This document shows positions 6,914 through 26,953 of a DNA stretch of 64,000 nt, in pieces (position 1 is the stretch's first letter; every line of letters begins with the position of its first letter). The notes beneath the pieces are model-generated. The model made no database searches, was not told the origin of the DNA, and saw only the letters and a list, made by a program, of their open reading frames with translations. Origin of the DNA: a virus (Duplodnaviria > Caudoviricetes); IMG/VR virus record IMGVR_UViG_2940228231_000002, positions 49,741 to 113,740 of that record; one strand, written 5' to 3'. The translations under genes were made by a program, and so were the position numbers.

Positions 6914-6934
6914 AGATTAAATTAAGGGGGAAAT

Positions 6935-7039
6935 ATGAAAAATATTGTAAAAGCGTTCAAAAATGAACAATTTGGAGAAGTTAGAACTATAAATGATAAT
7001 GATGACTTGGGCGTAGAAAGTGAGGTTCGTATTGTTTGA
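6935..7039 (+). pseudogene. Truncated Bro-N antirepressor-like remnant
   Basis: MKNIVKAFKNEQFGEVRTI... matches the typical Bro-N N-terminus (F.NE.FG.VR) but stops after 34 codons. Confidence 0.55.
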
Positions 7040-7078
7040 TACACAGCAGAAAATGACTAGAGATTGCGGGGTGGTTTA

Positions 7079-10474: not shown

Positions 10475-10551
10475 TCAATGAAAGGGTTGAAGTATTAGGA
10501 TATTTAAGAGGAGAAAATCTACATAGGGATATCGAGTATCGGATTTGCTTA

Positions 10552-11328: not shown

Positions 11329-11421
11329 AGGGTATATGTGAAATCTAAGTATGAAAGTAAAAATAAAAGGGGAAAAAAGCAAGAAAGGATTTCAATACGA
11401 TACAAGGAGAATGGGATTAAT

Positions 11422-11595
11422 ATGATACTAATTACAAAAGACGAAGCGGAATTTATTAGAAAAAACTCTAAGAATTGTCGCATCGTCACAACTGGGAAAT
11501 CAAAAAACAAACGTCAAAAGAAACGGTACGTTGATGAGATTTCCGAAACATATAAGTTACTTCGCAAGTTTCACAAGAAGAAGAAAGTGAGGTAA
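11422..11595 (+). CDS. Small basic hypothetical protein
   Basis: MILITKDEAEFIRK...; AAGGAG RBS. Confidence 0.65.
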   Translation: MILITKDEAEFIRKNSKNCRIVTTGKSKNKRQKKRYVDEISETYKLLRKFHKKKKVR

Positions 11596-11600
11596 TATAT

Positions 11601-12800
11601 ATGGAAAACTTTAAACGCAAAGTTGGAGAGCCAGAAGATGCTTACATCTATAGAATCTGCTCAGACAAGAGTTCCATTGGTACATGGGAAGATGTTGCTT
11701 CCTTATTAAATGCGGAATTGGAACACAACTGGACTGAGTCAGCATATAGGAAGAAATATCAAGCTGGCATAAATTACATAATCACCAACCAAGATGAGTT
11801 GTTTAACAGTGAAGGATATCTACAAAAGATCAAAGATGAGCGAGACGCTCTAGAGAAAGAGAGATATAAACTTGCCACTGAAAAATTGGAAAGAAATCGT
11901 TGGTTGCGCGAAGAAGCTCGTGATGAATTGTTTCAGGAAAAAGTTCTTGAGGCGATTGATAGAAATGTTGGGAACTCTAAACCGCCTTGCAGATTGCAGC
12001 TCAAGAGAGATGAAAGATGTGGAATTCTTGCTCTTGCAGATATGCACTTTGGGGCAGACTTTAAGATTTACGGCATTAATGAAGAAACGCTGAATGAATA
12101 TAGTCCAGAGATATTCTTTTTCACAATGGAGAAGTTATTTACTGAACTTTTGGATTACATCGCACTTCAAAGGCTAGATTATTTGAAGATATTCAATCTA
12201 GGAGATAGTTTAGATGGATTCTTAAGACATTCTCAAATATGGACACTGAGATACGGTGTCGTGGACTCTGCTATTATTCTCGGAGACTATTTAGCCAACT
12301 GGCTAAGGGAGTTATCAAGACATGTGGGCATTGAATACTACCAAACCAACGGAAACCACGGTGAGCTAAGATTGTTGGATGGCCGTAAAGGTGCACATAC
12401 GCATGAAAACATTGAAAAAATAGTTGAAGACATAATTGAGAGAGAAAACAAAGACAATTGTAATCTTGAGATTGTCAGAAACAAGTCTGGATTTATATTT
12501 ACAGAAGCAGTGGGCTTCAACATACTCGGTATTCATGGCGAGGTCAAAAAGTTGACAGATGCCATTAAAGATTATACCGATATATATGATACTAGAATTG
12601 ACTATCTTATCGCAGGACACAAGCACCACACAGAATTTACTAACTGTGGTACTCGTAAAGGCTGTATAGGAGTTGGGTCTATTATCGGCAGTGATGATTA
12701 TTCGCTGTCATTGAGAAAGACGGCTGATGCAACAGCATCTCTCGTCATATTTGAAAAAAACAAAGGAAAAACGGATGAGCACACATTTGTGCTTAATTAG
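11601..12800 (+). CDS. Calcineurin-like metallophosphoesterase with N-terminal HTH (SPbeta YonJ-like)
   Basis: Motifs ADMHFG, NLGDSLDG, GNHG, IHG and AGHKHH. Confidence 0.85.
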   Translation: MENFKRKVGEPEDAYIYRICSDKSSIGTWEDVASLLNAELEHNWTESAYRKKYQAGINYIITNQDELFNSEGYLQKIKDERDALEKERYKLATEKLERNRWLREEARDELFQEKVLEAIDRNVGNSKPPCRLQLKRDERCGILALADMHFGADFKIYGINEETLNEYSPEIFFFTMEKLFTELLDYIALQRLDYLKIFNLGDSLDGFLRHSQIWTLRYGVVDSAIILGDYLANWLRELSRHVGIEYYQTNGNHGELRLLDGRKGAHTHENIEKIVEDIIERENKDNCNLEIVRNKSGFIFTEAVGFNILGIHGEVKKLTDAIKDYTDIYDTRIDYLIAGHKHHTEFTNCGTRKGCIGVGSIIGSDDYSLSLRKTADATASLVIFEKNKGKTDEHTFVLN

Positions 12801-12821
12801 AAATGAAAAGAGGATGAGAAA

Positions 12822-13091
12822 ATGAAAGAATTGATTAACAAAGTCGCTGAGGCTAATGGAATCAGTAAACAGCTATCAAAGGAAGTATGCAAGTCTGTAT
12901 TTGAAATTCTTGCTGAGGAGCTTGCTGTTGGAAATACAGTCAAGATTAATAAGTTTGGAATCTTTGAAGTTCGTGTCAGAGAAGCAAGACAGGGATTCAA
13001 TCCAAATACAAGAGAAAAATTAGAGCTTCCAGAGAAAAAGTATCCATGGTTTAAGTCAGCAAAAGCACTTAAAGATATTGTCAGCGATTAA
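12822..13091 (+). CDS. hup: HU family DNA-binding protein
   Basis: ELINKVAE...KFGIFEVRVREARQGFNPNT...P.FKSAKALKD signature. Confidence 0.95.
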   Translation: MKELINKVAEANGISKQLSKEVCKSVFEILAEELAVGNTVKINKFGIFEVRVREARQGFNPNTREKLELPEKKYPWFKSAKALKDIVSD

Positions 13092-13168
13092 TTTCGCTAC
13101 ATATACAATGATGTCACTTCGTTGCGCCTACCCCCTTGTGCGATAGTGCGGAGTGGCATCAAATTCAT

Positions 13169-13242
13169 AGCGGTGTTGAGAAGTGGTATCTCATGGGACT
13201 CATTATCCCAAATCGGGTGTTCGACTCACCCCACCGCAACCA
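13169..13242 (+). tRNA. tRNA-Met(CAT), initiator-like
   Basis: Cloverleaf; anticodon arm TGGGA-CTCATTA-TCCCA; 1:72 mismatch; TTCGA T-loop; encoded CCA. Confidence 0.85.
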
Positions 13243-13422
13243 TTACTCGTCTACCATGTTGTAGAATGAGAAATCGGGCTTCGTAATGCGATTTCCGAAT
13301 TTTGTAAAGTCAACATTAAATAAGGCATTAAAAGATAATATCTTTATTATAGAGAGCACCTGTGCTGTCCGTATTTATAGGCTGTTGAGAGTTCAGCTTG
13401 CTTTAGCCTAGAAGTTTAATAC

Positions 13423-13499
13423 GCTGGTATAGTTCAGTTAGGTAGAATACTTGTTTTGTACTCAAGATGTCTGAGGTTCAAATCCTCATGCCAGCTCCA
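13423..13499 (+). tRNA. tRNA-Thr(TGT)
   Basis: Acceptor GCTGGTA/TGCCAGC; loop TT-TGT-AC; U discriminator; CCA. Confidence 0.88.
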
Positions 13500-13545
13500 A
13501 AATAAAACGATGATGGAGGCAGAGCCTTCTACCCTTTCCCCATTT

Positions 13546-13576
13546 GTTGAAGTAGCTCAATGGTGGAGCAACTGAC
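13546..13576 (+). pseudogene. 5' half of a tRNA (acceptor, D-arm, start of the anticodon stem)
   Basis: GTTGAAG TA GCTC AATGGTG GAGC A ACTGAC; no matching 3' half found downstream. Confidence 0.5.
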
Positions 13577-14218
13577 AAACTGGCAGAAGAACAGTCGGCA
13601 GGATTTCTCCTAAGCCTGTATCCAAAACGGAGATATAAGTACCTATAAAAATATATACTAAAGTAACTCAGTGCAAACATCACTAGTTAGGTGGTGCTGA
13701 GGCATACTGGTTGAGTCAGTTATGTAAAAGACGGATACGTCTTTTCTGTAGCTGCGCGTCTTTAAGCGATTTCTGACGTGTAGGCAAAACCGAAACTCAA
13801 GGTATGGCACTGCGTTTACTGCAATCAAACGCACGAGATGAATGGGCAACGCAATAGAAAGAGTGGTTAAAAGCCACTCCGAATCCAAGTTAGGTTTTAG
13901 TTGGTGACTGTAGCAAACCTTGGAAATACCAACAAGTTGTTTCCCAGTGAAAGAGAGAAATCTCTGTATAACATTCGTCGAAGTACGAGTAGGGTGGGGA
14001 TTTTATAATATTGCTTTATCAAACGAATATAAGCACAAAATAAAATTTTCTGAATTAATCCTGAAAGTTGAGGGTAAGCAACCCCTCCAAAGTTTAGCTC
14101 TTTGATGGGCGTGGTAAAGAAGTCACTAGGGTAGCTCCCTTAGGCTCAGACTTTATCTCCTTTGTGGCAGAATATGGTTGAAAGTAAGCAACAGCAGGCT
14201 GAAAAGACACTTTCTGTA
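13577..14218 (+). ncRNA. Large structured ncRNA, GOLLD/ROOL-like (boundaries approximate)
   Basis: ~640 nt between tRNAs with no credible ORF and many helices (GAGTGGTT/AGCCACTC, GTTGGT/ACCAAC, CCAAG/CTTGG, GAGGGT/ACCCTC). GOLLD and ROOL RNAs are known from phage tRNA clusters. Confidence 0.55.
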
Positions 14219-14241
14219 TATATTTTTATAGGTACTTTTGA

Positions 14242-14316
14242 AGCAGGGTGGAGCAGTGGTAGCTAGTCAGGTTCATACCCTGAAAGTCGCAGGTTCGAGT
14301 CCTGCCCCTGCAACCA
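14242..14316 (+). tRNA. tRNA-Met(CAT), initiator-like
   Basis: TCAGG-TTCATAC-CCTGA arm; 1:72 mismatch; CCA. Confidence 0.9.
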
Positions 14317-14378
14317 ACACCTTTCTACCAAGTGTAGAGAGGGTCTGTCGAAGAACTTCTAGTCCTTCGACCTTTATG

Positions 14379-14455
14379 GGAGAGGTAGCTCAGATGGAAG
14401 AGAAAAACTAGTATCACTAGGTGTGTCGTAGGTTCGAATCCCACCCTCTCCGCCA
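14379..14455 (+). tRNA. Atypical tRNA-like element (nominal anticodon ATC)
   Basis: Good acceptor GGAGAGG/CCTCTCC, T-arm and CCA, but an aberrant anticodon arm (CTAGT-ATC-ACTAG). Confidence 0.55.
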
Positions 14456-14483
14456 GAAGATATATTGTGATTTCATTTAGCCT

Positions 14484-14577
<94 letters not shown>

Positions 14578-14584
14578 ATCATGT

Positions 14585-14660
14585 AGGGGTATAGCTCAGT
14601 TGGTAGAGCTGTGGTCTCCAAAACCACGTGCCGTGGGTTCAAGTCCTACTGCCCTTGCCA
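14585..14660 (+). tRNA. tRNA-Trp(CCA)
   Basis: GTGGT-CTCCAAA-ACCAC; canonical cloverleaf; CCA. Confidence 0.93.
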
Positions 14661-14816
14661 CTTAGTAATATATTTGGAATAAAATCCACAATGGCTCCAG
14701 CTCAGACTAACGCCAAATAAGGAGTTCCTTGTAGGTGGTGCATGGACAACAACCACTCACGCATATGGGAGTATAACCCTTTTAGTCGGGGGAAAAGACC
14801 GTAAGCCCATAATTTT

Positions 14817-14841
14817 GCCAGACATCTGTCTGGCTTTTTTT
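14817..14841 (+). terminator. Intrinsic terminator
   Basis: GCCAGACA-TC-TGTCTGGC followed by a T-run. Confidence 0.7.
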
Positions 14842-14917
14842 GGTTCTGTAGTGTAAATGGTTAACACATCAGGGTTCATCCTGAAAAGTCCGAGTTCGAT
14901 CCTCGGCGGAATCACCA
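14842..14917 (+). tRNA. tRNA-Glu(TTC)-like with a 6-nt anticodon loop
   Basis: Glu-type acceptor GGTTCTG/CGGAATC; arm TCAGG-GTTCAT-CCTGA; CCA. Confidence 0.65.
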
Positions 14918-14945
14918 AAAAAGATAAAAGGAGAAAAGGAAAAAT

Positions 14946-15833
14946 ATGATTAACTATTATTGCCCTGATTTTTTCATGGGAATAAAAACATATTTACATC
15001 TTTGCGAAATGAAGCAAGTAGTCCCTACTGTGTTTTATGATGACGTTAATATTAAAGCCGTGTTTGGTAGTTTTCCAAACATGACTTGGAATGGTGGCGG
15101 GACTTTCTTTGGCCCGATGCTCGCAGATGTAAATGAGATTCGTAATGTATTTTCCGTCTATAAAAAATTGAATATCAAACTTCAATTAACAATGACCAAT
15201 GCACTCTTGGAAAAAGAAGATTGCTATGATAGATATGGAAATACCGTACTGCGAATTATAAGTGAAGAATATAGTGATGATTTTGAGATACTAGTCTCTT
15301 CCCCTATTTTAGAGGAATACATAAGGGAGAAATACCCGTCACTAAAAATTAGCAGAAGTATTATTGCAGCAAAAGATGATTGCGACTATAGTGAGGCGTT
15401 GAAGAAATACGAAAATGTGGTTATGCCAATTCGTCATTTGGAGAATTTTGAGCTATTGAATTCTTTTTCGCCAGAAGAAAAACGACACATAGAGCTATTA
15501 TGCAATGACCCCTGCCCTCGTGATTGTCCTAGACTATATACTCACTATCCAGAGTATGCGAAAGCTACACTGTTAATGGAGACACTGAACCCAAGTTTAA
15601 ACCCAGCGTTGAATTGCAATAATCATGTGCCACTATCTGAGAAGTCGCTGAGTGCGAACTCAAGAGTGACGTATGATGAAATCAAAGAAGTTTATGTCCC
15701 TATGGGATTTAGTGAATTCAAACTATCTGGCCGTGGAAATGTGGTCAATATAATTACTAGTATAGTGCCATACTTTATTAAACCTGAATATCAAGTCGGG
15801 GCTATCAAGCACCTGCTGATGAATAATCAGTAA
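14946..15833 (+). CDS. Peptidase U32-family-like Fe-S protein (paralog 1)
   Basis: WNGG motif; ELLCNDPCPRDC Cys cluster; C-terminal FKLSGR (U32 xKxEGR-like). Confidence 0.7.
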   Translation: MINYYCPDFFMGIKTYLHLCEMKQVVPTVFYDDVNIKAVFGSFPNMTWNGGGTFFGPMLADVNEIRNVFSVYKKLNIKLQLTMTNALLEKEDCYDRYGNTVLRIISEEYSDDFEILVSSPILEEYIREKYPSLKISRSIIAAKDDCDYSEALKKYENVVMPIRHLENFELLNSFSPEEKRHIELLCNDPCPRDCPRLYTHYPEYAKATLLMETLNPSLNPALNCNNHVPLSEKSLSANSRVTYDEIKEVYVPMGFSEFKLSGRGNVVNIITSIVPYFIKPEYQVGAIKHLLMNNQ

Positions 15834-15846
15834 AGGTTGGTGCACG

Positions 15847-17916
15847 ATGAATAAATTATTTGAAAGCCCGCCTAATGTCAGAGAGGGAAAAACTAAAGAA
15901 GAGCTACTTGAAATGTTAGAAGGAGAATTCTGGAGAAATAAATATGGAGATATTCATAACGGATTTGATCTGGAGATTATTGTATCTAGTGGCTGTAATT
16001 TAGGATGTCGTGGTTGTGACCACTTCTCCCCCATTGCTAATGAATGGTTTGTTGACGTTGGCACTCTTAAAGAAGAACTTTTAATGCTAAAAGAAAGACT
16101 TCCTATGATTAAGAATGTTTTTCTAATTGGAGGAGAGCCACTGTTACACCCAAATTTTGTAGACGTGGCATGTTTAACACGTGACATTTTTCCAAATAGT
16201 GATGTAATTACATATACTAATGGACTGCTCATGAATAGTTTCAGTGAAGAGGATTATATTACTTTTTCAGAAAAACGCATCAGCTTCATCATGACAAGAT
16301 ATCAAGTTGGATTTGATTATGAAAAAGCCAGTGCAAATCTGGATAAATATAAGATTAACAACAACTACACACACACTAAGCTGATATTTGGTGGTTATAC
16401 AGTAAATCCTGAAGGCACCGAAGATCAAACTCAGTTTTATACGTGTACAAAAACACAGACACCAGTGCTATCGCTAAAAGAAGGAAAGATATATAAATGC
16501 CCTTTTAGTTGTTGCTCTGGGAATATTACAAACATACATGAAAAGATAGTTATTCCTGAAACAGAAAATGATTATTTGGATATTAGAGAAATAACTATAG
16601 AAAGATTAGACGCATTCTGTCACACTCCAAACGATAGATGCAAATATTGTGTCGAGTCAGGAAGTGGGTCTTGGCTGTGGCGACCTTATGATGGAGATGA
16701 GAATTCTTACTTGTATAGTTTGAAAGATTATTATCTTTATGATTATGATCAATACAATCTCTTGATCAATAACAAAGACTACGCAGATACTATTTTAGAC
16801 AATGAAGAATTGTCTGCAAAGCTAGATTATAAATTTCATGAAAATGTTAGTAGTAAAATAATCAAAAGATATAAGTCAAGTAAGATTGACATTATTGTCC
16901 CCTTCTATAATTTGACGAATGAGATTATCTTACAGTTAATGGATACGCTGGCAAGTCAAACAATTATAGATGATTGTGTTGTCTACATGATTAGTGACGG
17001 AGATCCACGAGAAGCTGATATTTATTCTGCTTTCGACAGGGAATTCATAAACTGTGTAATGCTAAAAAATGAGGTTCGTGGTGGCCCAGGTGTTGCCCGT
17101 AATAAAGCCTTGGAATGCTGTTACGGAGAGTATATTTACTTTCTCGATGCAGACGATAGGTTTGCAGATAGCGACTCTTTAGAGCGACTATATGAGTTTG
17201 CCAAAGATGGTCAATATGAAATTGTAACACATGAGGTTATTGTTGAAGATAAGCATCATGAGTCAAATTTAAGCGACGACAGAAATATAACAAGGAATTT
17301 CTATTTAGGAGATTTTATCAGAGAAAATAAAATTCTGTTTCCCCCACTGCATTTTGGAGAAGATGGTTATCTTGCTAACTTGGCTCAACATCATAAAGCA
17401 AGAGAGGGATTTATTCCTTATAAGGCATATGTCTATAATAAAAACATCAACAGCGAGAAAGCATGTCGTAATGACTACTCTGACTCGGATGTAATGATTT
17501 GTACAATGATAAATAATTATTGTTGGGCAATGGACATTCATAGTCGAGGACTTGCTCAGAGTGTTGAGGATTTTTATATTCCATTTCTTAGACAGCTTGG
17601 AGATGAGTCATTTATTCAGAGCGACTCAAAAGAGAAAACAACTCTTAATTTAGCAGTTGCTTTGTGGCTTGGCGGAAGACTATACAATGATGTTTTGGTG
17701 AAGCTACCAAGTGGCTTCAAATTAAATGAAAGCGATATCAATATAGTTAATGTTGTCGTTCTCAAGCAAATCGAAGACAATGATTACGTGTTTGAGTTGG
17801 ATGGGCGCACATCACACACCTTATCTTCACTTGAAAAGAAAATAATGTCTATTCTAATGAAAAAAGATAGTCTAATAGTAAAATCAGCAGTGGATTATTT
17901 GAAGGGGTGGTTGTAA
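15847..17916 (+). CDS. Radical SAM-glycosyltransferase family 2 fusion protein
   Basis: N-terminal CNLGCRGC and GGEPLLHP with Cys-rich auxiliary region; C-terminal GT2 motifs IDIIVPFYN, GGPGVARN, YIYFLDADD and GED. Confidence 0.88.
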   Translation: MNKLFESPPNVREGKTKEELLEMLEGEFWRNKYGDIHNGFDLEIIVSSGCNLGCRGCDHFSPIANEWFVDVGTLKEELLMLKERLPMIKNVFLIGGEPLLHPNFVDVACLTRDIFPNSDVITYTNGLLMNSFSEEDYITFSEKRISFIMTRYQVGFDYEKASANLDKYKINNNYTHTKLIFGGYTVNPEGTEDQTQFYTCTKTQTPVLSLKEGKIYKCPFSCCSGNITNIHEKIVIPETENDYLDIREITIERLDAFCHTPNDRCKYCVESGSGSWLWRPYDGDENSYLYSLKDYYLYDYDQYNLLINNKDYADTILDNEELSAKLDYKFHENVSSKIIKRYKSSKIDIIVPFYNLTNEIILQLMDTLASQTIIDDCVVYMISDGDPREADIYSAFDREFINCVMLKNEVRGGPGVARNKALECCYGEYIYFLDADDRFADSDSLERLYEFAKDGQYEIVTHEVIVEDKHHESNLSDDRNITRNFYLGDFIRENKILFPPLHFGEDGYLANLAQHHKAREGFIPYKAYVYNKNINSEKACRNDYSDSDVMICTMINNYCWAMDIHSRGLAQSVEDFYIPFLRQLGDESFIQSDSKEKTTLNLAVALWLGGRLYNDVLVKLPSGFKLNESDINIVNVVVLKQIEDNDYVFELDGRTSHTLSSLEKKIMSILMKKDSLIVKSAVDYLKGWL

Positions 17917-18468
17917 TTGGTAATTATATTAAAATCTAATCAAATGACATTGGCTGAAATTCCGTTGTATCACAATAGTTTTGATCAAATCACTTTTGGC
18001 GATGATAAGGTTAAGGAAATTAGCATAGTTCATGAGATTAAGAATTCTGACGAGAAGGCTTTGGAAGAGTTATATAAAAAAATATCTGCTGTAGATTATC
18101 ATTCAGTAAACGAAGTCATTGTTTACTATGACAAAGATACTTATTTTTCGTTCAACGCACAAGTTAAGGGAGTATATTATCGTGTGCTCAGCTACCTGCG
18201 GGCAAGAAATATGGAACTCAATGAGTATTTGACCATTAGATTCGCAGAGGATAATAAAGTCTGTATAGGCAGAGATGAGGATTTTGTGTTTTGCGATCAA
18301 GCAAAATGCAACTATTATAAAAACAACTATTGTAAAAAATATAATGCCGAGCTAGATACGGCAAATACATATAACAAACCAATGATATGCGAAAGCTGTT
18401 ATTTGGAAATGTGGCCAGAGATTGGTCGCACTTTTCTTGGTAATATGGAAGCAAAGTACAAGAAGTAA
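17917..18468 (+). CDS. Hypothetical protein with Cys-rich C-terminus
   Basis: C..C....C.......C...CESC; translationally coupled within the operon. Confidence 0.7.
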   Translation: MVIILKSNQMTLAEIPLYHNSFDQITFGDDKVKEISIVHEIKNSDEKALEELYKKISAVDYHSVNEVIVYYDKDTYFSFNAQVKGVYYRVLSYLRARNMELNEYLTIRFAEDNKVCIGRDEDFVFCDQAKCNYYKNNYCKKYNAELDTANTYNKPMICESCYLEMWPEIGRTFLGNMEAKYKK

Positions 18469-18487
18469 AATGAAAGGAAGTGGCGAT

Positions 18488-18847
18488 ATGGCGCAATACA
18501 TATTTAGATTTAAATCAGGCGAAGAAACACTAGAAAGCGTTCTAGAGGGAGAATATTCTTTTTCCATTAGACAGCAAGGGAAGGGTTCTGAGAGTTTTGT
18601 AATCATGGGTTATTATAAAGACTATGACGCAGTTGAATCTGGCGGTTTAAAAGTTTTATATAATGATTTTGAAGAAGATATGACAGATTTAGAAATCTCT
18701 CTAGTTGAAGCGGCTAAGGAAGTTGTTGTCTTTAGGAGACCTATTGTTGGCGTAACTTATTTTGAAACTGAAAACCTAGAGAATAATGAAAAAGGATTTG
18801 GAATGACTGAAGGAGACTCTCTCAAAGCATCAATAAGGATAGAATAA
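18488..18847 (+). CDS. Hypothetical acidic protein
   Basis: RBS before MAQYIF; abuts the next gene. Confidence 0.7.
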   Translation: MAQYIFRFKSGEETLESVLEGEYSFSIRQQGKGSESFVIMGYYKDYDAVESGGLKVLYNDFEEDMTDLEISLVEAAKEVVVFRRPIVGVTYFETENLENNEKGFGMTEGDSLKASIRIE

Positions 18848-18848
18848 A

Positions 18849-19355
18849 ATGGGATTAATTAAAGACAATAATACGTCATGGAGTGACATAAAAACACTGT
18901 ACACAAATCTTAACACTGCTAGAACTAAGTTTGGATTTGAGACAGCTACAGTTCCAGAAAAAGAAGCGGAAATTACGACTCCAACGGATATAACAGATAT
19001 TAAGTCTTTAATTGAAGCAATGACTACTAATTCGTATGTTGGCAGTACAGCATCGACTGAAAGTGTTATAGTTCCAGCAAGTGGTGATATTATGCAACCA
19101 ACTCCGTTTACGGAAATGGAAACGATTATTCAAAATGTAAATGATACTTGTGCACATAATGCGTCGTATTTTGCGGGGAACTATGCATACAATTCATCTT
19201 TCAACTCTAGCAACTATGGATATAACTCGACTTTCAATTCAAGTAATTATGGCTTCAATTCGTCTTTTAATTCTAATTGGAATTCAGGCAATTATAGTTT
19301 TAATTCGTCTTTTAATTCAAACTGGAACTCTGGCAACTATAGCTTCAGAAGATAG
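18849..19355 (+). CDS. Putative modification substrate: ~100-aa leader-like domain plus Asn/Ser/aromatic repeat tail
   Basis: C-terminus GNYAYNSSFNSS NYGYNSTFNSS NYGFNSSFNSNWNSG NYSFNSSFNSNWNSG NYSFRR; lies directly upstream of two radical SAM genes. Confidence 0.75.
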   Translation: MGLIKDNNTSWSDIKTLYTNLNTARTKFGFETATVPEKEAEITTPTDITDIKSLIEAMTTNSYVGSTASTESVIVPASGDIMQPTPFTEMETIIQNVNDTCAHNASYFAGNYAYNSSFNSSNYGYNSTFNSSNYGFNSSFNSNWNSGNYSFNSSFNSNWNSGNYSFRR

Positions 19356-19383
19356 AAAAATTGAAAAAAGGAGTATATAAAAA

Positions 19384-20838
19384 TTGAATAATGAACACAC
19401 AGATATTAGAAGGCTAACATTGTTAGCGGCCACTGGATGTAATTTGCAGTGCAAATACTGTGCGATAGCAAAAACAACTAATGAACACTCTAAAACCCTA
19501 TTTAGTGAAACAATCAAAGCACTAGATGATGGGACTTATTTAGAGAACACATTAAAATGTTTAGAGCGGCTTGGTGAGTCCCCATATAAAATCGAAGGAT
19601 TCGACATATGGGGGCAAGAACCTACCATGATTATTTCTCATGTTTCAAAGAACTGGGGAGATTGGTATGCTGCCTATCCAAATATCAAGTCAACATTCTT
19701 TTCTACAAACGGAATAGATATGGTTGACCAGATTTATGATTTTGTTGTTGCAGTAAATGAAGTGGCCACAAAAGAAATACAAATGGACTTTCAGGTTTCT
19801 TACGACGGAGCTTATGGCACCGAAAATGTTAGAGGCGGAGAAGGTTCCTCAATACTCAACAACTGTATTGAGTTGAATAAAAAGTTCAATCAGACTCACC
19901 TTCCAAATGTGAACGTGAGTTTTAATTTCCACGGAGTTGTGTCAAATGACCTAATTGAGTACTTAGATAACTTTGAAAAAATAGATGCCTACTTAAAAGA
20001 AATCGAAAGTTTTTTAAAGCAAGTTAGAGATACTAATATTAGTAAACATATCCGATGGAATGGAATCACATTACAGTACGAGAACGGAACAGATGTACAT
20101 GCTGAACAGGGAATCAGATTGGCTGACTTTGTGAGAAAGATAGAACATCTGAGACATGAAAACACTTATACGTTTTTCAATGATGGCGAGAGCTTTATCA
20201 TGGAGCTGTTAGGTGGGAGCATCTACATGCTTGAAGAGAAAATGAAGGAATATAACTCCCCTACTTTAGATGCTTATGTAAATGATGTACTTAACCGTAG
20301 TGATGTGGATTTGAACAGGAAGTACAAACAGGCGCCCTATTGTGGCCCCGCTAGATCTGAATTAAAAGTCATATATGATGGGACATTGGTTACTTGCCAG
20401 AACTCTATATATGACATTCAAATAGATAAGAGCACTTTAGAGAACACGGTGCGAGATGAAGCTCGCTGGGGTCAAATGACTCACGGGCACAGGATTAATT
20501 TCATTAATGATAGCGATGAAGATATTGAGAAGTATCTAAGTTTCATTGACAATACATTTAATGGCAGCGTGCAATATTTTATGATTGGCAATATTGCAAA
20601 TCTTATGTATTGCTTAGCTAAAATTGGTCAGATCTCCCCTTCCTATTTAACAGATATGGAAAAGCTCAAAAGACATGCTTTTATACTGTCAAATGTAAAC
20701 TGCTGCTACTACAACCTAGTGGTTAACTCAGGGTCGAATGTTATCCGTAATGCGAGCGAGATCAGATTGCTATGCAACGGAGTCTTAGACCTATATGAAG
20801 AGGCAGTGAATTTGAGACTTTTTAGAAACAAGGAGTAA
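19384..20838 (+). CDS. Radical SAM protein
   Basis: CNLQCKYC, WGQEPT, FSTNG, QVSYDG; C-terminal Cys (YCG...TCQ...NCCY). Confidence 0.9.
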   Translation: MNNEHTDIRRLTLLAATGCNLQCKYCAIAKTTNEHSKTLFSETIKALDDGTYLENTLKCLERLGESPYKIEGFDIWGQEPTMIISHVSKNWGDWYAAYPNIKSTFFSTNGIDMVDQIYDFVVAVNEVATKEIQMDFQVSYDGAYGTENVRGGEGSSILNNCIELNKKFNQTHLPNVNVSFNFHGVVSNDLIEYLDNFEKIDAYLKEIESFLKQVRDTNISKHIRWNGITLQYENGTDVHAEQGIRLADFVRKIEHLRHENTYTFFNDGESFIMELLGGSIYMLEEKMKEYNSPTLDAYVNDVLNRSDVDLNRKYKQAPYCGPARSELKVIYDGTLVTCQNSIYDIQIDKSTLENTVRDEARWGQMTHGHRINFINDSDEDIEKYLSFIDNTFNGSVQYFMIGNIANLMYCLAKIGQISPSYLTDMEKLKRHAFILSNVNCCYYNLVVNSGSNVIRNASEIRLLCNGVLDLYEEAVNLRLFRNKE

Positions 20839-20844
20839 TGATTT

Positions 20845-22260
20845 ATGACAAAAGGAAAATTCATCAATGATGAAAAGAAATTGATGGAATCGTATATAGA
20901 TAGTGAACTACTACCGTTGCCTATAGACAAGAACTCAATGCATATTAGCAAAAATATGTTAGAGTTGATTGTTAGACCAGAGTGCAACCAGAAGTGTGAA
21001 TACTGTTATATATATAAATATGGAACAGAGCTGTACCCTACTCGCTCTAATAAAGAAGAAACTTTGAAGAATATAGATATGATTTTAGACTATGTTTATA
21101 TGACAAGAAAAAATTTCTTCTATCAAATAGAAATCTTTGCTGGGGATCTATTTTATGACGACATTTACTTCGATATGCTAGACATATTTGAGAAATACTT
21201 TGGAGTGTTAAAGAAAAGATATGGATATCTATTTAGTCGCAGAGTTGCAATGGTAACACCATGCAATATGTCTTTCGTAGTAGAAAGTCCAGAAAAGGCT
21301 GATAGATTTATTGAATACCATAATAGATTCTTGAAGGATTATAATGTTAAATTGGCATTCTCTTGGTCTACAGACGGAATTTATTCCACAGATATTAGAG
21401 AAAAGGCAGAATTAAACGAAGAGTATTTTGATACTATATTTGAGTTCTGTAAAAGCATCGAGTCTGGATACCATCCAATGATCAGTGCGTATGGAATCGA
21501 CAACTTGAAAGATAACTACGATTGGTGGTTGTCTAAGCTCGAGCAGTTTGATTTGAGCAAGGGGCATGATTTCCAACCACCTATGTTGGAAGTTCGCAAT
21601 GGCGATGAATGGACTGATGAGGCGATTGACAAGTATTTAGATTTCTTGTCTTATGCTATGGAAAAAAGATTTGAACTATGTAATTATTCTGTTGATGCAC
21701 TTGCACAACACTTCTTTGATTACGATTCAGACGCCGAGTTAAAGAGAATGAATAACTACGATTTCTTAATTGTAGATGTGAAAAACCCAGATAGCCAAAG
21801 AACTGAGGCGATATCTTGCAGTATGCAACATACGATTCATTTTAATTGCACAAATTTATCTTTGTCTGTTTGCCATAGGACTACCTACCCAGAATTCACT
21901 GGGGCGTATTTTAAAACTGACGAGACAAATAGTCGCATTGTAGATATTGAACCTCATAATGTAAGTGGATATATCACACTTAGATGCATGGATATTTCCA
22001 AAGGCCCTATGTGCGTAGATTGTGAGATTCAAAATAATTGCTTGCACGGGTGCATTGGTGCTCAATATGAATACTCTGGGGAGATTATGCTACCTATCCC
22101 ATCTGTTTGTAATCTGTTTAAGAAGAAAGTTAAACATTTGGTTAAGCTATACAACGAATACGGATTAATTGATAGTGCAATAAAAAACAATTATCTACAG
22201 GGATATGGCAAAGAATTTTGGCTTGAAAAATCTAAAGAATTGGGGTACGAATATGCGTGA
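20845..22260 (+). CDS. Radical SAM/SPASM-domain protein
   Basis: CNQKCEYC, SWSTDG; SPASM-like SC...VCHR...CVDCEIQNNCLHGC...C. Confidence 0.9.
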   Translation: MTKGKFINDEKKLMESYIDSELLPLPIDKNSMHISKNMLELIVRPECNQKCEYCYIYKYGTELYPTRSNKEETLKNIDMILDYVYMTRKNFFYQIEIFAGDLFYDDIYFDMLDIFEKYFGVLKKRYGYLFSRRVAMVTPCNMSFVVESPEKADRFIEYHNRFLKDYNVKLAFSWSTDGIYSTDIREKAELNEEYFDTIFEFCKSIESGYHPMISAYGIDNLKDNYDWWLSKLEQFDLSKGHDFQPPMLEVRNGDEWTDEAIDKYLDFLSYAMEKRFELCNYSVDALAQHFFDYDSDAELKRMNNYDFLIVDVKNPDSQRTEAISCSMQHTIHFNCTNLSLSVCHRTTYPEFTGAYFKTDETNSRIVDIEPHNVSGYITLRCMDISKGPMCVDCEIQNNCLHGCIGAQYEYSGEIMLPIPSVCNLFKKKVKHLVKLYNEYGLIDSAIKNNYLQGYGKEFWLEKSKELGYEYA

Positions 22261-22648
22261 AAAAGATGATTTTATTAGTATCCTAAGAGAGATGGAAAAC
22301 TCTTTCGATGCTAGTAATATTGAAGACTATTACAATATAATTGGAACTATTGGAATGCTTATGGCAAACAAAGAAGAAGATTCAGAGATTTGGGAACATA
22401 TTCTCTCTATCGTTGGAAAAGTTATGTCTACGAGTCATGTCGATAGTCCTAAAAAGAATAATGATATGGGGTTTACTCCAAGCACTAATGATGTGTTGTA
22501 TTATAGGCTCAACAACTTTAGTGATGAAAAAATGAAACAACAGGTGCAAAAATATGACGAACTATCGGACTCGCTAAAAAAGGTGATATCCTTTAGAATA
22601 GTTTGCCCTGACATATGCGAACCTAACTATGGAGTATTTTTAGATTAA
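22253..22648 (+). CDS. Hypothetical protein
   Basis: Overlaps the stop of the rSAM gene; CPDIC near the C-terminus. Confidence 0.7.
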   Translation: MREKDDFISILREMENSFDASNIEDYYNIIGTIGMLMANKEEDSEIWEHILSIVGKVMSTSHVDSPKKNNDMGFTPSTNDVLYYRLNNFSDEKMKQQVQKYDELSDSLKKVISFRIVCPDICEPNYGVFLD

Positions 22649-22649
22649 G

Positions 22650-23522
22650 ATGATCTATTTCACACTTCCAAGCCTATACAATAACTTTGAGATAAATGAC
22701 TTCTTTGTTAATTTATCAAATTATTATAGTCATTTCTTTAAGTATAAAGTCGTGTTCTCTAGTGTGACTGGGAACTTCCCTTTCTGCTATTGGAACGGCG
22801 GGTATAACAACAATATCGACGGGCATAATATTGCAACATATGAGGACTTTGTTTCCTGTGCGGAAGAATACAGTGCCCCTATCAGATTTAATTGTGCAAA
22901 TGTTTGCTTGCAAGAAAATGACGTTAATGATACGATGGCTAACTTAATACTGTCGGTAAACCAAACTGGTTCAAATAGTATTGAGTTATCTAATTTGGAA
23001 ATATATGAAACACTCAAAAAGAAATATCCTGAGTATACCTATGTCTTCTCAAAAGAAGCGGACTTAGTATTTCCAATGACACCAGAGATTATAAATATAA
23101 TCGACAAAGAGTGCGATTTCAAGTTAATCTCTTTGCCAGAAGATAAAACAACTGATATGAGTTTTTTAGAAGCGATAAGCAATCCATCTAAAATAGAACT
23201 GTCAGTCAACACAGTATGCAACAAGAGTTGCGTAAAATATAAGCAGTGCAAAATGCACGAACACCAATCTCAGTATGACTTTTCAGAAGTTAACAACTAC
23301 AAACGATGTCAAGAGCACAGCTCTTATGCAGAACGTGCTCCTATGATCACAATGGATGATATCGTCGCTAAGTATTTACCAAAAGGTTTTAATCACTTTA
23401 CATTGGCTGAGGTCATCTCAGACAGCCGTGATAATCTAATAAACTTCTTGGTGAATTATTTTATTAAGGATGAAAACAAAGCTGAGGTCTATGAGATGAT
23501 TATGAAAAAAGGAAAAATTTAA
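22650..23522 (+). CDS. Peptidase U32-family-like Fe-S protein (paralog 2, degenerate C-terminal motif)
   Basis: FCYWNGG, ELSVNTVCNKSC and GFNHF align with paralogs 1 and 3. Confidence 0.65.
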   Translation: MIYFTLPSLYNNFEINDFFVNLSNYYSHFFKYKVVFSSVTGNFPFCYWNGGYNNNIDGHNIATYEDFVSCAEEYSAPIRFNCANVCLQENDVNDTMANLILSVNQTGSNSIELSNLEIYETLKKKYPEYTYVFSKEADLVFPMTPEIINIIDKECDFKLISLPEDKTTDMSFLEAISNPSKIELSVNTVCNKSCVKYKQCKMHEHQSQYDFSEVNNYKRCQEHSSYAERAPMITMDDIVAKYLPKGFNHFTLAEVISDSRDNLINFLVNYFIKDENKAEVYEMIMKKGKI

Positions 23523-23523
23523 T

Positions 23524-24396
23524 ATGATTAAATACGCCATTCCTGGCATGTGGGAATTGAGAGATTTGAATTTCAAATATTTGAATCTTATGAGAACACA
23601 TCCAGAGTTCTTCTATGAAGATATAGAAGTTGAGGTGGTATATGGGAATCCCCAATTCTGTATTTGGGACGGTGGCAGAATTTTTCAGAAGTATGAATTC
23701 GCTACATTAGAAAAAATCAATCACACAGTTGGAGTTTACAATGAAGCATTTAATCTACCAGTGAGATACATATTCACGAACTGCAAGTTAGAGCCTGTTC
23801 ATTATCAGGATAGGTTTGGTAATTTGCTCATGGAGGTTGCCCACAGCGGAAAGAATGATGTAGTTGTTGCTGATGACGATTTTTGTGATTTTCTAAGTTC
23901 AAAATATCCTAACTACAGATATATATCCTCAACTACTAAATGTATTGAAGATGAAGAATTAGCAAAAAAAGAATTAAATAAAGATAGATATGGTCTTGTG
24001 TGTCTTGACTATAATCTAAATAGAAAAATGGACTTTCTAAAGTCACTAAATGACAAGGAGAAAGCAAAGACAGAACTTTTAATAAACGCAATCTGCCCCC
24101 CAGGGTGTCAGCATAGAAAAGAGCACTACTACCTAAATAGTATGTGTTCTTTGTCTTATGGGAAGAAATACACTATGGAGCACTGCTCTATCAAGACTAA
24201 TATAACAGACCCACAAGCGAGAAAGCACTACATGTCTTACGAGACAATTAAAAATGTTTATGCTCCAATGGGGTTTGAGCATTTTAAGATTGAGGGGCGT
24301 ACCTTGAGTTTATTAGAGACTATACTGAGCTATTGCTACTTTATGGTAAAGCCAGAGTATCATGACCAAGTTGTCATCCTGTCTTTATTGGAATGA
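23524..24396 (+). CDS. Peptidase U32-family-like Fe-S protein (paralog 3)
   Basis: CIWDGGR, ELLINAICPPGC, GFEHFKIEGR. Confidence 0.75.
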   Translation: MIKYAIPGMWELRDLNFKYLNLMRTHPEFFYEDIEVEVVYGNPQFCIWDGGRIFQKYEFATLEKINHTVGVYNEAFNLPVRYIFTNCKLEPVHYQDRFGNLLMEVAHSGKNDVVVADDDFCDFLSSKYPNYRYISSTTKCIEDEELAKKELNKDRYGLVCLDYNLNRKMDFLKSLNDKEKAKTELLINAICPPGCQHRKEHYYLNSMCSLSYGKKYTMEHCSIKTNITDPQARKHYMSYETIKNVYAPMGFEHFKIEGRTLSLLETILSYCYFMVKPEYHDQVVILSLLE

Positions 24397-24399
24397 GAT

Positions 24400-25047
24400 A
24401 TGCAAAAAATACTTACGATTGACTTTGATGTGGTTATGGCACCGAGTATAGACACCTATAATAATCTAATTCCTGGAGCCAAATGGGAAGAATTAAACAA
24501 GATGCCAATGATGAAAAATCTACAGGCTGACTATATTCATTACCAAAGACTAACAAAGTTGGTGCTATCCTTATCAAAGCAGATGCCTCGTGAAGATATA
24601 TTCTTCATAGAAAATCATGGAAAGATAGTTGACTTAGTAGAGCACGGTGACGACATAGGTTTAATCAACATCGATCATCACCACGATATTAAATATCCGA
24701 AAAACAAAGTGCCTGAAGGTATATGCACTTGTGGTAATTGGGTGTCAGAATTGCTGACCAATAGTCGTAGTGTTGGACATCTTTGGATTAACAACCCCAC
24801 ATCTAAAATGCCAGATGAAGATGTTTCAGGAAACTATATTTTTGAACATGCTCTGCTTGAAGATTACGACCTACAGAAGATTGGAGTTCCAGACAAAATG
24901 TTTCTCTGTCTATCAGAGCCTTGGATTCCACCACAATATAGACCACTGTTCTTTTTGTGGGTTGATATGCTGAGCGTAGAGTTTGACCATGAATATTTAG
25001 TGGACTTCTCTATGCCAAGAAATGAAGGTGTTGTATATGAAAAATAA
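24400..25047 (+). CDS. UPF0489-family protein (putative metallo-hydrolase)
   Basis: LTIDFD, ENH, INIDHHHD, CGNW and LCLS.PW motifs. Confidence 0.7.
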   Translation: MQKILTIDFDVVMAPSIDTYNNLIPGAKWEELNKMPMMKNLQADYIHYQRLTKLVLSLSKQMPREDIFFIENHGKIVDLVEHGDDIGLINIDHHHDIKYPKNKVPEGICTCGNWVSELLTNSRSVGHLWINNPTSKMPDEDVSGNYIFEHALLEDYDLQKIGVPDKMFLCLSEPWIPPQYRPLFFLWVDMLSVEFDHEYLVDFSMPRNEGVVYEK

Positions 25048-25840
25048 AACACTTCTAGTATCAAGAGAACATCGGTCTGAGAATACCATTGTCAGATGTG
25101 GGAAGAATAATCAAGTTGAGTTTGGAGGAAACACTCCTCAGATAATTGCAGGGCCTTGTGCTGTTGAGTCTAGAGAACAAATACTGCGAATAGCAAGGAA
25201 TGTGCAAAAGTGCGGAGCCACACTATTAAGAGGTGGAGCTTTTAAGCCAAGAACCTCTCCCTACTCTTTTCAAGGACTAGGAGAATTAGGTCTGCAATAT
25301 TTACTAGAAGCAAAAGAACAAACTGGACTACCTGTAGTTTCTGAAATAATGGATGTATCACAAATAGATCTATTTGAAAATGTAGACATATTACAAGTTG
25401 GTGCACGGAGTATGCAAAACTTCCAATTATTAAAATCACTTGGACAGTTGAATAAGCCAATTCTACTCAAGCGAGGGTTTCAAAATACAGTAGACGAGTT
25501 TTTGCTATGTGCTGAATATTTAATGTCTCACGGAAATAGAAAGATAATTTTATGCGAAAGAGGAATCAGGAGCTTTGACCCGCTGATGCCTTTCTCCTTA
25601 GATATTAGTGTTGTTCCATTGCTAAAAGAAAAGACGCACTTACCAATAATTGTAGACCCAAGCCACGCAACTGCAAATAGTAAATTAGTTGTGCCAATGG
25701 CTAGGGCTGCTCTGCTCGTTGGAGCTGATGGTGTTATGGTAGAAACACATGATAAACCAGAAGATGCTCTATGTGACGGAGACAATGCTATTGGATATGA
25801 AGAATTGAAATCAATAACTATGAATAAACGGGAGACGTAA
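25037..25840 (+). CDS. aroF: DAHP synthase (3-deoxy-7-phosphoheptulonate synthase), type I-beta, catalytic barrel only
   Basis: IAGPCAVES, RGGAFKPRTSPYSFQG, QVGAR, LLKRG, LCERG, DPSHA and ALCDG. Confidence 0.93.
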   Translation: MKNKTLLVSREHRSENTIVRCGKNNQVEFGGNTPQIIAGPCAVESREQILRIARNVQKCGATLLRGGAFKPRTSPYSFQGLGELGLQYLLEAKEQTGLPVVSEIMDVSQIDLFENVDILQVGARSMQNFQLLKSLGQLNKPILLKRGFQNTVDEFLLCAEYLMSHGNRKIILCERGIRSFDPLMPFSLDISVVPLLKEKTHLPIIVDPSHATANSKLVVPMARAALLVGADGVMVETHDKPEDALCDGDNAIGYEELKSITMNKRET

Positions 25841-25853
25841 CACTCCCGTTTTT
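25825..25853 (+). terminator. Intrinsic terminator closing the modification island
   Basis: AAACGGGAG...CTCCCGTTT followed by a T-run. Confidence 0.7.
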
Positions 25854-25891
25854 CAATTGGATAAAAAGAGAAAAGGAGTGATTCTACAGCT

Positions 25892-26953
25892 ATGAAACCA
25901 AAGGTTGCCACCAGGAACACACCTGAAGATAAAATGTTTACTTGCACAATGTGTGGCAAATCATATGAAAACCCAGAGCGTAGATTTTTTAAGACTAAAA
26001 GCAAATTATATGAAAAAAACGACATGTATTATTGTGTATGTAGATCATGTTTAGAGGAGAAGTTTGAGGAGTTTAAAAAAAGATATGACGAACGTACAGC
26101 AATGCTTGTTATGTGTCATTATCTAGATGTTCCCTTCTACTATTCTCTATACGACAGTGTAATTAAAAACAACGACAAGTTTACAATTGGATTGTATTTC
26201 CGTCAAATGAATACCAAGCAATTTTATTCTAAGACGTTTGTAAACACTTTAGTCGATAAGAAAGAGCTTGGTATCGATACTGAAAAATATGAAGTTATCA
26301 AAGAAGAGAAATGGTCTGTGAGTGATACCAAGACTAAAAATAATGTAATTGAAACCATAGGCTACGACCCATTTGAAGGATATGACGAAAACCAAAGGAA
26401 GTTCTTGTTTACCAACATCGCTGGATACTTAGGTGATGATGGAATTGATGAGGATAACTATAAGATTTCTCAAATCATTCAATTGGTAAATAACAACTAT
26501 CAGATATCACAAATAGACATGATGATTCCTAGATTGAATACATCAACTCACTTAGATGATATCAAGTCATTAAATAAACTAAAAAAAGACCTTGTTGATA
26601 GTAACGATAAGATTGCAAAACAAAATGGAATCTCTGTTAATAACAGAAAAGACCAAGAAGTCGGCAAGTCTACCCTCACACACCTAATGAAGAAACTGAG
26701 AGAATTAGACTTTGATGATGCCGAGGAGAATTATTATAATCAACTACAAAGTGCTGGCAGTCAATGGGCAGCAAATATGTCTTTTAAGTCAATCATGGAA
26801 CATGGATTCTTTGATGAAAACGACCGTGAAGAAGTGTTTGAAACGCAACGTAATCTAATAGAAAAATTACAAAAGCAAGTTGATGACACAAGTGAAGAAA
26901 ATCGTCTATTAAAACTTGAAAATATTGAACTTAAAGAGGCGGTGAAATCATGA
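25892..26953 (+). CDS. Putative terminase small subunit (N-terminal Zn finger)
   Basis: CTMC...CRSC; overlaps the terminase large subunit; SPbeta-like position. Confidence 0.65.
   Translation: MKPKVATRNTPEDKMFTCTMCGKSYENPERRFFKTKSKLYEKNDMYYCVCRSCLEEKFEEFKKRYDERTAMLVMCHYLDVPFYYSLYDSVIKNNDKFTIGLYFRQMNTKQFYSKTFVNTLVDKKELGIDTEKYEVIKEEKWSVSDTKTKNNVIETIGYDPFEGYDENQRKFLFTNIAGYLGDDGIDEDNYKISQIIQLVNNNYQISQIDMMIPRLNTSTHLDDIKSLNKLKKDLVDSNDKIAKQNGISVNNRKDQEVGKSTLTHLMKKLRELDFDDAEENYYNQLQSAGSQWAANMSFKSIMEHGFFDENDREEVFETQRNLIEKLQKQVDDTSEENRLLKLENIELKEAVKS

Follow-up and report, generated by a model that had tools for sequence, protein, structure and literature searches.

What does a phage do with a run of twelve genes that encode radical S-adenosylmethionine (SAM) enzymes, relatives of U32 proteins, a glycosyltransferase and a 3-deoxy-D-arabino-heptulosonate 7-phosphate (DAHP) synthase? 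The question is raised by positions 14946-25840 of a 64,000-nucleotide stretch (the window) of IMG/VR virus record IMGVR_UViG_2940228231_000002, which is C1:75480-139479 of a 2.17-Mb, 27-contig genome and belongs to a prophage of a gut anaerobe. The island consists of 12 open reading frames (ORFs), all on the plus strand, with intergenic gaps of 0-28 nucleotides or overlaps. We named them W1 to W12 in 5' to 3' order; L and P numbers are labels of other loci. An earlier note, made from the letters alone, had proposed that the island is a phage-carried pathway, similar to those that make ribosomally synthesized, post-translationally modified peptides (RiPPs), that acts on a phage protein with a repetitive tail. 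In this study, we found that a part of the island, namely the repeat-tailed protein W5, the radical SAM pair W6 and W7 and a U32-like gene, recurs as a cassette in other phages.

Conservation of the cassette

Loci were collected from the contexts of W5, W1 and W7 homologues and from W7-profile scans of IMG/VR and GTDB genomes. The resulting 97 phage or metagenome-assembled genome (MAG) loci represent 48 lineages at 70% W7 identity. A paired radical SAM gene lies directly upstream of W7 in 39 of the 48 lineages. In 33 lineages, the ORF that ends just upstream of this pair has a tail of low complexity, rich in aromatic and polar residues; such tails are found in 49 of 799 background ORFs (6%). 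The N-terminal domain of the W5 type is detectable in 19 lineages. A U32-like gene is found within 10 kb in 16 of these 19 W5-type lineages but in only 3 of the 29 others, and a repeat-tailed ORF is located directly upstream of the radical SAM pair in every W5-type lineage examined. The loci with a W5 homologue directly 5' of W6-W7 are the window, L002/8/9/16, L005-7, L011/12, L013, L014, L015, L017-24, L086, L089 and L090.

L086 (CAYLJU010000010.1, a 50.6-kb contig binned as Muribaculaceae) contains two tandem complete U32-W5-W6-W7-U32 units at 6202-21423, and their tails differ: one is built of GSNYGYDAADF units and the other of RATNFTSNYSGF units. This duplication is a natural experiment for enzyme-substrate specificity. 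Because the repeat-tailed ORF is directly upstream of the radical SAM pair in all W5-type lineages and belongs to the duplicated unit in L086, it is supported, on sequence and synteny, as the best candidate substrate.

The other island genes behave differently. The glycosyltransferase family 2 (GT2) domain of the type found in the C-terminal half of W2 is present in 4 of the 48 lineages, a W11-type gene also in 4, and a DAHP synthase gene in none (0/48), being confined to the window prophage. These counts indicate that the conserved unit is W5, W6, W7 and a U32-like gene and that the rest is lineage-specific. Thus, of the gene combination in the earlier note, the core recurs, whereas the GT2 and UPF0489-like genes are occasional additions. 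Relatives of the cassette were found in gut Clostridia and Bacilli MAGs, most of them on phage contigs of 50-220 kb from gut Clostridia. GenBank phages gave no DNA match to the island and no W7 homologue, and a W1 relative was found there only in three unannotated faecal phage contigs.

The repeat-tailed protein W5

W5 (18849..19355, plus strand) is a putative substrate of 168 residues. In the structural model, its N-terminal domain (about residues 1-100) forms three helices with a predicted local distance difference test score (pLDDT) of about 75, and disorder begins at about residue 104; the model is confident for the N-terminal domain only. The disordered tail (about residues 104-168), encoded by DNA repeats at 19179-19347, has ten [FYW]-N-S triplets compared with about one in shuffled sequences, so the repetitive aromatic-Asn-Ser tail noticed earlier is well founded. 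Two 15-residue units are identical in protein; 7 of their 45 bases differ, and all seven differences are synonymous. The exact peptide sequence is therefore under purifying selection. The tail is neutral, not basic. W5 matches no Pfam or NCBIfam domain, and reading of its N-terminus, which is not hydrophobic, gave no signal peptide; no signal-peptide predictor was run.

The W5 homologues fall into 14 clusters with a common N-terminal domain and differing aromatic/Asn/Ser/Gly repeat ends. Across lineages the tails range from about 30 to 570 residues, and all retain aromatic plus Asn/Ser/Thr/Gly units; N-x-[ST]-aromatic is enriched in the tails of most W5 lineages. Reading N-x-S/T as an N-glycosylation sequon is not favoured, because the GT2 gene is absent from most cassettes. 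Some W5 genes were missed or misjudged by gene callers: the ORF in L014 was uncalled, and the homologue in L013 (6485-8500) has a 671-residue form with a 570-residue Phe/Thr/Ser/Gly/Tyr tail of GNRTFY-type units and four in-frame TAG codons. The L013 locus also has a release-factor gene (PCRF/RF-1) at 1554-2636.

The radical SAM pair W6 and W7

Two adjacent radical SAM proteins, one with a clear SPASM-like cysteine set, had been described from the sequence, and the conserved cysteines agree with this. W6 (19384..20838, plus strand; 484 residues) has the CX3CX2C motif (C19/C23/C26) and four more invariant cysteines (C320, C338, C441 and C464), and probably carries one auxiliary cluster. W7 (20845..22260, plus strand; 471 residues) is a radical SAM/SPASM enzyme. 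Its CX3CX2C motif (C47/C51/C54) and seven auxiliary cysteines (C325, C343, C390, C393, C399, C403 and C422) are invariant in 30 sequences, the latter following the SPASM seven-cysteine pattern (C...C, CX2CX5CX3C, C), and the SPASM model TIGR04085 was matched by 25 of 30 relatives. W7 homologues form more than 200 clusters at 90% identity, which makes the cassette a common one.

The direct family matches of W6 and W7 themselves are weak radical SAM signals. Single-sequence PDB searches with either protein gave noise only, so profiles were needed. In profile searches, the best solved sequence relative of both was TigE (8vpo; 7e-6 for W6 and 9e-4 for W7); the W6 profile also matched anSME, and W7 weakly matched ChlB (9gm3). 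Sub-threshold NCBIfam matches of the W7 relatives were almost all to SPASM enzymes that modify peptides or proteins, namely to PapB (30/30), QhpD (29/30), YhhB (21/30), XyeB (19/30) and HxsB (10/30), as well as to nif11-type, CbpB, SCIFF and anSME models, with few to cofactor or nucleotide radical SAM enzymes. The W6 family shows a similar pattern, with sub-threshold matches to PapB and to radical SAM families with a twitch domain. The W7 family stayed below the cut-off of every named cyclophane-synthase model; W7 scored 14 bits against XyeB, whose cut-off is 450. HxsB (TIGR03978) and HxsC (TIGR03977) were not matched by W6 or W7 themselves, and the weak HxsB matches among relatives (best 2.2e-6, among those of W7) include 1 of 7 W6 relatives. 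Neither W6 nor W7 has an N-terminal RiPP recognition element (RRE), their cluster motifs beginning at residues 19 and 47. Since the cut-off of no named family is reached, we do not assign a reaction to the pair.

The U32-like proteins

The island contains three U32-like paralogs, all on the plus strand: W1 (14946..15833; 295 residues), W9 (22650..23522; 290 residues) and W10 (23524..24396; 290 residues). Their mutual identity is 23-26% (W9 to W1 and W10, 23%; W10 to W1, 26%), and W9 could be aligned with the W1 family. The W1 type is conserved beside W5-W7 in other phages, W1 being 46% identical to its homologue in L002 and 55% to P0017. None of the three proteins matches Pfam or reaches the gathering score of PF01136. 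At the family level, however, 10 of 36 W1-family members match PF01136 at E ≤ 0.1 (best 2.1e-5). The AlphaFold2 model of W1 (pLDDT 90.5) has the U32 peptidase Mk0906 (5d88) as its top PDB match (Foldseek E 4e-6), and VIA-align gave Z 14.7 over 225 residues for 5d88, the next entry reaching 10.8. Neighbours of W10 in the ESM Atlas include proteins annotated 'Collagenase and related proteases' and a cluster that has PF01136 (template modelling score 0.94). Searching PDB sequences with the family profile found nothing; the relationship came from the fold search. Invariant in the family are C190, C194 and C224 (W1 numbering), together with a near-invariant His. The earlier label of three U32-like paralogs thus holds for the fold and at the family level, as a distant relationship.

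The characterized U32 enzymes UbiU/UbiV, TrhP and RlhA are Fe-S proteins that hydroxylate aromatic rings without O2; prephenate has been shown to be the oxygen donor for UbiU/UbiV and proposed to be so for the whole family (PMC10990095, PMC6599085, PMC5727448). The cassette is a compact case for the function of uncharacterized U32 subfamilies, and it also bears on whether prephenate-dependent hydroxylation reaches beyond quinones and RNA. In a separate context, the P0070 locus (JGI 3300032167, a 179-kb contig, part of which is L010), two W1-family U32-like paralogs adjoin NeuB, a CTP_transf_3 cytidylyltransferase, a cupin/mannose-6-phosphate isomerase-like gene and two short SPASM proteins. 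The W1-type subfamily therefore accompanies nonulosonic-acid sugar genes in some phages.

Genomic position and time of expression

The earlier note had taken the position of the island just before the packaging genes as a sign of late expression. This argument is weak because the cassette neighbours differ between phages. The terminase follows the cassette in the window, whereas nucleotide-metabolism genes and a lysin-like gene adjoin it in L005, and the terminase, portal, RNA polymerase and exonuclease of the window are near the cassette in none of 100 other loci. Adjacency to the packaging genes therefore says little about timing. In three more distant lineages checked (L054, L056 and L062), the cassette is located beside or behind tail or tail-fibre genes. 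A virion role for the W5 product is possible.

In recoded gut phages, in-frame recoded codons are taken to mark late-translated genes. In three independent TAG-recoded lineages (L008, L013 and L015), most of the in-frame TAG codons in a region of about 20 kb lie in cassette genes: eight in a gene like the N-terminal half of W2, six, four and one in the W5 genes, five, one and two in the W6 genes, and one, zero and one in the W7 genes. L008 has one more in the small ORF that follows W7, and L015 has three in a gene downstream; none occurs in the remaining neighbours listed. This pattern would fit translation of the cassette after the code switch, that is, late in infection.

Proposed maturation of W5 and alternative explanations

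The explanation that we favour, and to which we give roughly an even chance, is a phage-borne protein-maturation cassette. Every chemical step, as well as the order, timing and destination given here, is what we infer from the genes. W5 would be synthesized as a small protein whose N-terminal domain folds into three helices and whose (Phe/Tyr/Trp)-Asn-Ser tail is disordered. The W6/W7 pair, probably aided by the small proteins W4 and W8, would act on this tail, and the enzymes are likely to abstract hydrogen from a side-chain carbon and then to couple this carbon to a neighbouring aromatic ring, giving cyclophane-type cross-links as in the triceptides or the His-x-Ser (HXS) system. W1, W9 and W10 may then hydroxylate aromatic rings without O2, an aromatic-rich tail being a natural substrate for them. 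The unregulated DAHP synthase W12 would raise the flux through the shikimate pathway and thereby the supply of prephenate as oxygen donor; it would add flux and not a new pathway, since the host already has DAHP synthases. As lineage-specific add-ons, the GT2 half of W2 would glycosylate Ser or the new hydroxyl groups, and the arginase-fold-like protein W11 would carry out hydrolytic trimming. The product would stay a protein, made late in infection and not exported as small peptides, and it may be part of the virion or act at or after lysis.

The idea in the earlier note of a RiPP-like phage pathway acting on the repeat protein is strengthened by the recurrence of the cassette, by W5 as the best candidate substrate and by the likeness of the W6/W7 relatives to peptide and protein maturases; the part that does not carry over to most other phages is the add-on genes. 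Several points weigh against our explanation. The GT2, W11 and DAHP synthase genes are absent from most cassettes, so the steps of hydroxylation, glycosylation and prephenate supply are drawn from the window prophage by itself. No recognizable RRE, protease, exporter or virion-anchoring domain was found among the cassette proteins. Because W6 and W7 do not reach the cut-off of any named maturase family, their type of reaction is guessed. In the U32-like family, only three cysteines of the Fe-S motif are invariant, not four, and the substrates of the characterized U32 enzymes are RNA bases and a quinone precursor, in no case a protein (PMC6599085, PMC5727448, PMC10990095). The genomic position of the cassette varies between phages.

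A more specific form of this explanation would be that, in large phages of gut anaerobes, the paired radical SAM enzymes staple the aromatic residues of the disordered tail and the U32 enzymes hydroxylate them without O2, with prephenate, fed here by the phage DAHP synthase, as donor. The result would be a cross-linked, hydroxy-aromatic material, similar to 3,4-dihydroxyphenylalanine (DOPA) and sometimes glycosylated, which is built into the virion or released at lysis. Taken as a whole, this chain of steps is rather unlikely. If it were true, the U32 family would gain its first protein substrate in W5, and O2-independent aromatic hydroxylation would be seen for the first time on protein side chains. 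If the favoured explanation is right, phages apply natural-product chemistry to their own proteins, a layer of their biology invisible to sequence annotation, and are a reservoir of new radical SAM and U32 reactions. A DAHP synthase without regulatory domain within the operon is a rare indication that a phage rewires the shikimate pathway.

Three rival explanations have to be considered, each less well supported than the favoured one. First, W5 may be the precursor of a released multi-core RiPP, with a large leader domain and a tail that is cut after modification into small cyclophane peptides that aid the lysogen as bacteriocin or signal, as sublancin does for SPbeta. The tail consists of repeated short units like those of the multi-core precursors TigB and TvgA (PMC10878394), the W7 relatives resemble RiPP maturases, the window terminase is distantly SPbeta-like and U32 proteins were first annotated as peptidases. 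However, family scans found neither protease nor exporter in the operon, and tails of up to 570 residues, in-frame TAG codons in the cassette genes of recoded and probably lytic phages, and the location of more distant cassettes behind tail-fibre genes do not fit small released peptides. We consider this explanation unlikely.

Second, matured W5 may be an exclusion factor similar to the HXS system that keeps competing phages from entering with their genome or stops them at another step. An aromatic-x-Ser repeat protein, paired radical SAM enzymes and a small ORF as candidate partner match the architecture of that system (PMC13128918), 10 of 30 W7 relatives weakly match the HxsB model, and the cassette here is part of a prophage. 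Because W5 has no recognizable peptidoglycan-binding domain and, by reading of its N-terminus (no predictor was run), no signal peptide, because its tail is neutral and not basic, and because the recoding pattern favours late lytic expression, we give this explanation a low probability.

Third, the enzymes may act on a non-protein substrate, namely bases of phage tRNA or DNA or a sugar; the base would be hydroxylated by a U32 protein and glycosylated by GT2, an ulosonic sugar would come from the DAHP synthase, and W5 would be a scaffold or an unrelated protein of low complexity. The window cassette does abut a tRNA array, but this adjacency was not seen in the other loci. U32 enzymes are known to act on RNA and on a quinone precursor (PMC6599085, PMC5727448, PMC10990095), and the U32-like relatives in P0070 adjoin NeuB, a CMP-sugar transferase-like gene and SPASM genes. 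On the other hand, W5, W6 and W7 stay adjacent although the tails are hypervariable, and also in the duplicated unit, and matches of the W6/W7 relatives to peptide maturases far outnumber those to nucleic-acid or cofactor radical SAM enzymes. A substrate of this kind seems quite improbable. Finally, that W5 is an unmodified low-complexity protein of the prion- or FG-like type and stands beside the enzymes by coincidence is a very remote prospect, for although its tail composition resembles that of phase-separating domains, the adjacency is conserved in dozens of lineages (33/48 against the 6% background).

Other genes of the island and its surroundings

The remaining genes of the island, all on the plus strand, are W2, W3, W4, W8, W11 and W12. 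W2 (15847..17916; 689 residues) had been described as a radical SAM-GT2 fusion, and its N-terminal half indeed matches PF04055 (8e-11, residues 44-144) and its C-terminal half PF00535 (1.7e-17, residues 349-495; 64 bits against a cut-off of 23). The nearest PDB entry of the N-terminal domain is 7wzv (2e-10). The GT2 half has, by reading, an FLDADD motif (DxD), and its nearest relatives are GalT1-type GT2 enzymes. This type of fusion was also called in L011/L012 and L014.

W3, W4 and W8 gave no family match in library scans, in line with the three unknowns of the earlier note. W3 (17917..18468) is a 183-residue protein with a Cys-rich C-terminus and has syntenic homologues in L002, L008, L011 and L017. 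W4 (18470..18847), of about 120 residues, and W8 (22253..22648) are small proteins conserved in their position, for which no homology to HxsD was found. All twelve ORFs exist, but two starts in the ORF list probably lie further in: W4 probably starts at 18470 or 18488 and not at the TTG at 18422, its homologue in L011/L012 starting at the equivalent of 18488, and W8 probably starts at 22253 and not at 22205. The place of W4 is taken by an ORF of 113-128 residues in L002, L005, L014 and L015. W8 homologues follow W7 in L002, L008 and L011, and a small ORF (82-146 residues) follows W7 in all W5-type loci inspected.

W11 (24400..25047; 215 residues) is a putative metallohydrolase, distantly UPF0489/arginase-fold-like, for which the ESM Atlas gave a lead. 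W11 itself has no Pfam or family match. An exhaustive profile search found 1064 representative relatives, of which 8 of 40 match PF12640 and 2 of 40 Arginase, and D8, D10, H73, D92, H94, H95 and D96 are invariant in the family. The UPF0489 label is therefore kept as a distant relationship. W12 (25022..25840; 272 residues) overlaps W11 by 26 nucleotides and shares the operon terminator. It is a type I-beta DAHP synthase core without regulatory domain (PF00793, 1.7e-72) and, as the earlier note had it, a DAHP synthase, exceeding two NCBIfam cut-offs (TIGR01361, 350 bits against 268; NF006421, 391 against 335). An assignment as KdsA or NeuB was rejected, the DAHP synthase models scoring about three times higher than the Kdo8P and NeuB models. 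The host genome has two DAHP synthases, 53-56% identical to W12, as well as canonical U32 genes and chorismate mutase. The annotation of the twelve genes thus left the original labels standing, those of U32 and UPF0489 as distant relationships only.

The island stands between the tRNA cluster and the terminase and ends at one terminator, as described before. A terminator-like hairpin with a U-run at 25825-25854 (plus strand; -15.2 kcal/mol, z -4.24) closes the operon; it was missed by a generic/consensus terminator scan and found by reading the sequence and folding. A sigma-70 promoter scan of the window gave no enrichment, and such a scan is uninformative because the phage has its own RNA polymerase. 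Upstream of the island are an exonuclease, the tRNA array and a ROOL RNA. Two further notes from the first reading had asked whether a stretch there is ROOL-like, which is settled: a full-length ROOL RNA is present inside the array at 13643-14228 (plus strand; RF03087, 299 bits, E 2e-68). Two tRNAs of the array, both on the plus strand, are odd. One at 14379-14455 was called tRNA-Asp with anticodon ATC by ARAGORN and scores only 34 bits in Rfam. The other at 14842-14917, 29 nucleotides before W1, has an unassignable, two-base anticodon loop call and is directly preceded by a terminator-like hairpin at 14817-14834.

Directly downstream on the same strand are genes for the large terminase, portal, tape measure and minor tail proteins. 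Its kinship to the terminases of Thomasclavelia, C. botulinum c-st and SPbeta-group phages is only distant in the case of the terminase. An ORF of 353 residues (25892-26953, plus strand), which lies between the cassette and the large terminase, has a zinc-ribbon-like CxxC...CxxC motif at its N-terminus and a C-terminal coiled coil; no family match was obtained for it, and it is possibly the small terminase. Separate ORFs at 41113-43962 and 46222-50772 (plus strand), about 2.2 kb apart, match the N- and C-terminal parts of the tape-measure family phrog_4211, which suggests that the tape-measure gene is split or interrupted.

Comparison with known systems

In the HXS system, the HxS-repeat protein HxsA is matured at the protein level by HxsB and HxsC, and HxsD is the small partner (PMC13128918). 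The island resembles it in having a folded protein with an aromatic-x-Ser array (His-x-Ser in HXS, Phe/Tyr/Trp-Asn-Ser in W5) and two adjacent radical SAM enzymes, with small ORFs as candidate partners, and the W7 relatives have weak links to HxsB. SFNSS in W5 resembles the essential SHRSS site of HxsA (PMC13128918), and the W5 units, read as aromatic-X-Ser, follow the same pattern as do the HxS repeats and the name of the Fxs model. On the other hand, HXS is a bacterial system, exported and bound to peptidoglycan, whose repeats are basic, whereas the island is phage-encoded and W5 has no export signal on reading. HXS also lacks U32, GT2, arginase-fold and DAHP synthase genes, W6 and W7 lie below the HxsB and HxsC cut-offs, and the W5 repeats use Phe, Tyr or Trp and not His.

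The triceptide systems (XyeB, YhhB, FxsB, HtkB and ChlB; PMC11499958, PMC10114670) likewise place a radical SAM/SPASM enzyme beside a precursor with repeated aromatic-X-X motifs, and the ten [FYW]-N-S triplets of W5 lie directly upstream of W6/W7 as in a triceptide precursor. Many W7 relatives are sub-threshold to YhhB, XyeB and FxsB, and there is the weak match to ChlB. W7 is nevertheless no member by score, and the island differs in having two radical SAM enzymes instead of one, a substrate type of 168-671 residues with a folded domain, U32-like partners and a phage context.

TigE modifies each unit of a tandem-repeat precursor, and its TIG cluster has two radical SAM enzymes (PMC10878394). 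The cyclopropylglycine synthases TigE and TvgB (8vpo; PMC10878394) thus share with the island the repeat precursor and the enzyme pair, and TigE is the best solved relative of W6 and W7. However, their defining GYW motif was not seen in W7, W5 has no Val/Ile repeat units and W6 and W7 have no N-terminal RRE.

In mycofactocin biosynthesis (MftA/MftC/MftF), a radical SAM/SPASM peptide maturase is combined with a GT2 enzyme that acts on the product. We know of no mycofactocin pathway in phages. A weak TIGR03965 match was noted in this comparison, but mycofactocin maturation acts on one C-terminal Val-Tyr core and yields a small-molecule cofactor.

With the U32 hydroxylases, W1, W9 and W10 have in common the fold, a conserved cysteine cluster region, co-occurring paralogs, an anaerobic host and, through the DAHP synthase of the island operon, a genetic link to the shikimate pathway. 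They differ as minimal forms of about 290 residues below the Pfam threshold, and are linked to a repeat protein and radical SAM enzymes and not to RNA or quinone pathways.

No paper describing the cassette was found in the literature on U32 proteins with RiPPs or phages and on radical SAM enzymes with virions. The statement that no characterized system has this combination is therefore true for the combination as such, but its core logic has close analogues in the triceptides (PMC11499958) and HXS (PMC13128918). What is already known is that radical SAM enzymes mature an aromatic-X-X repeat substrate, as peptides in the triceptides and at the protein level in HXS. What is new is the phage setting, the constant U32 partner and the add-on genes.

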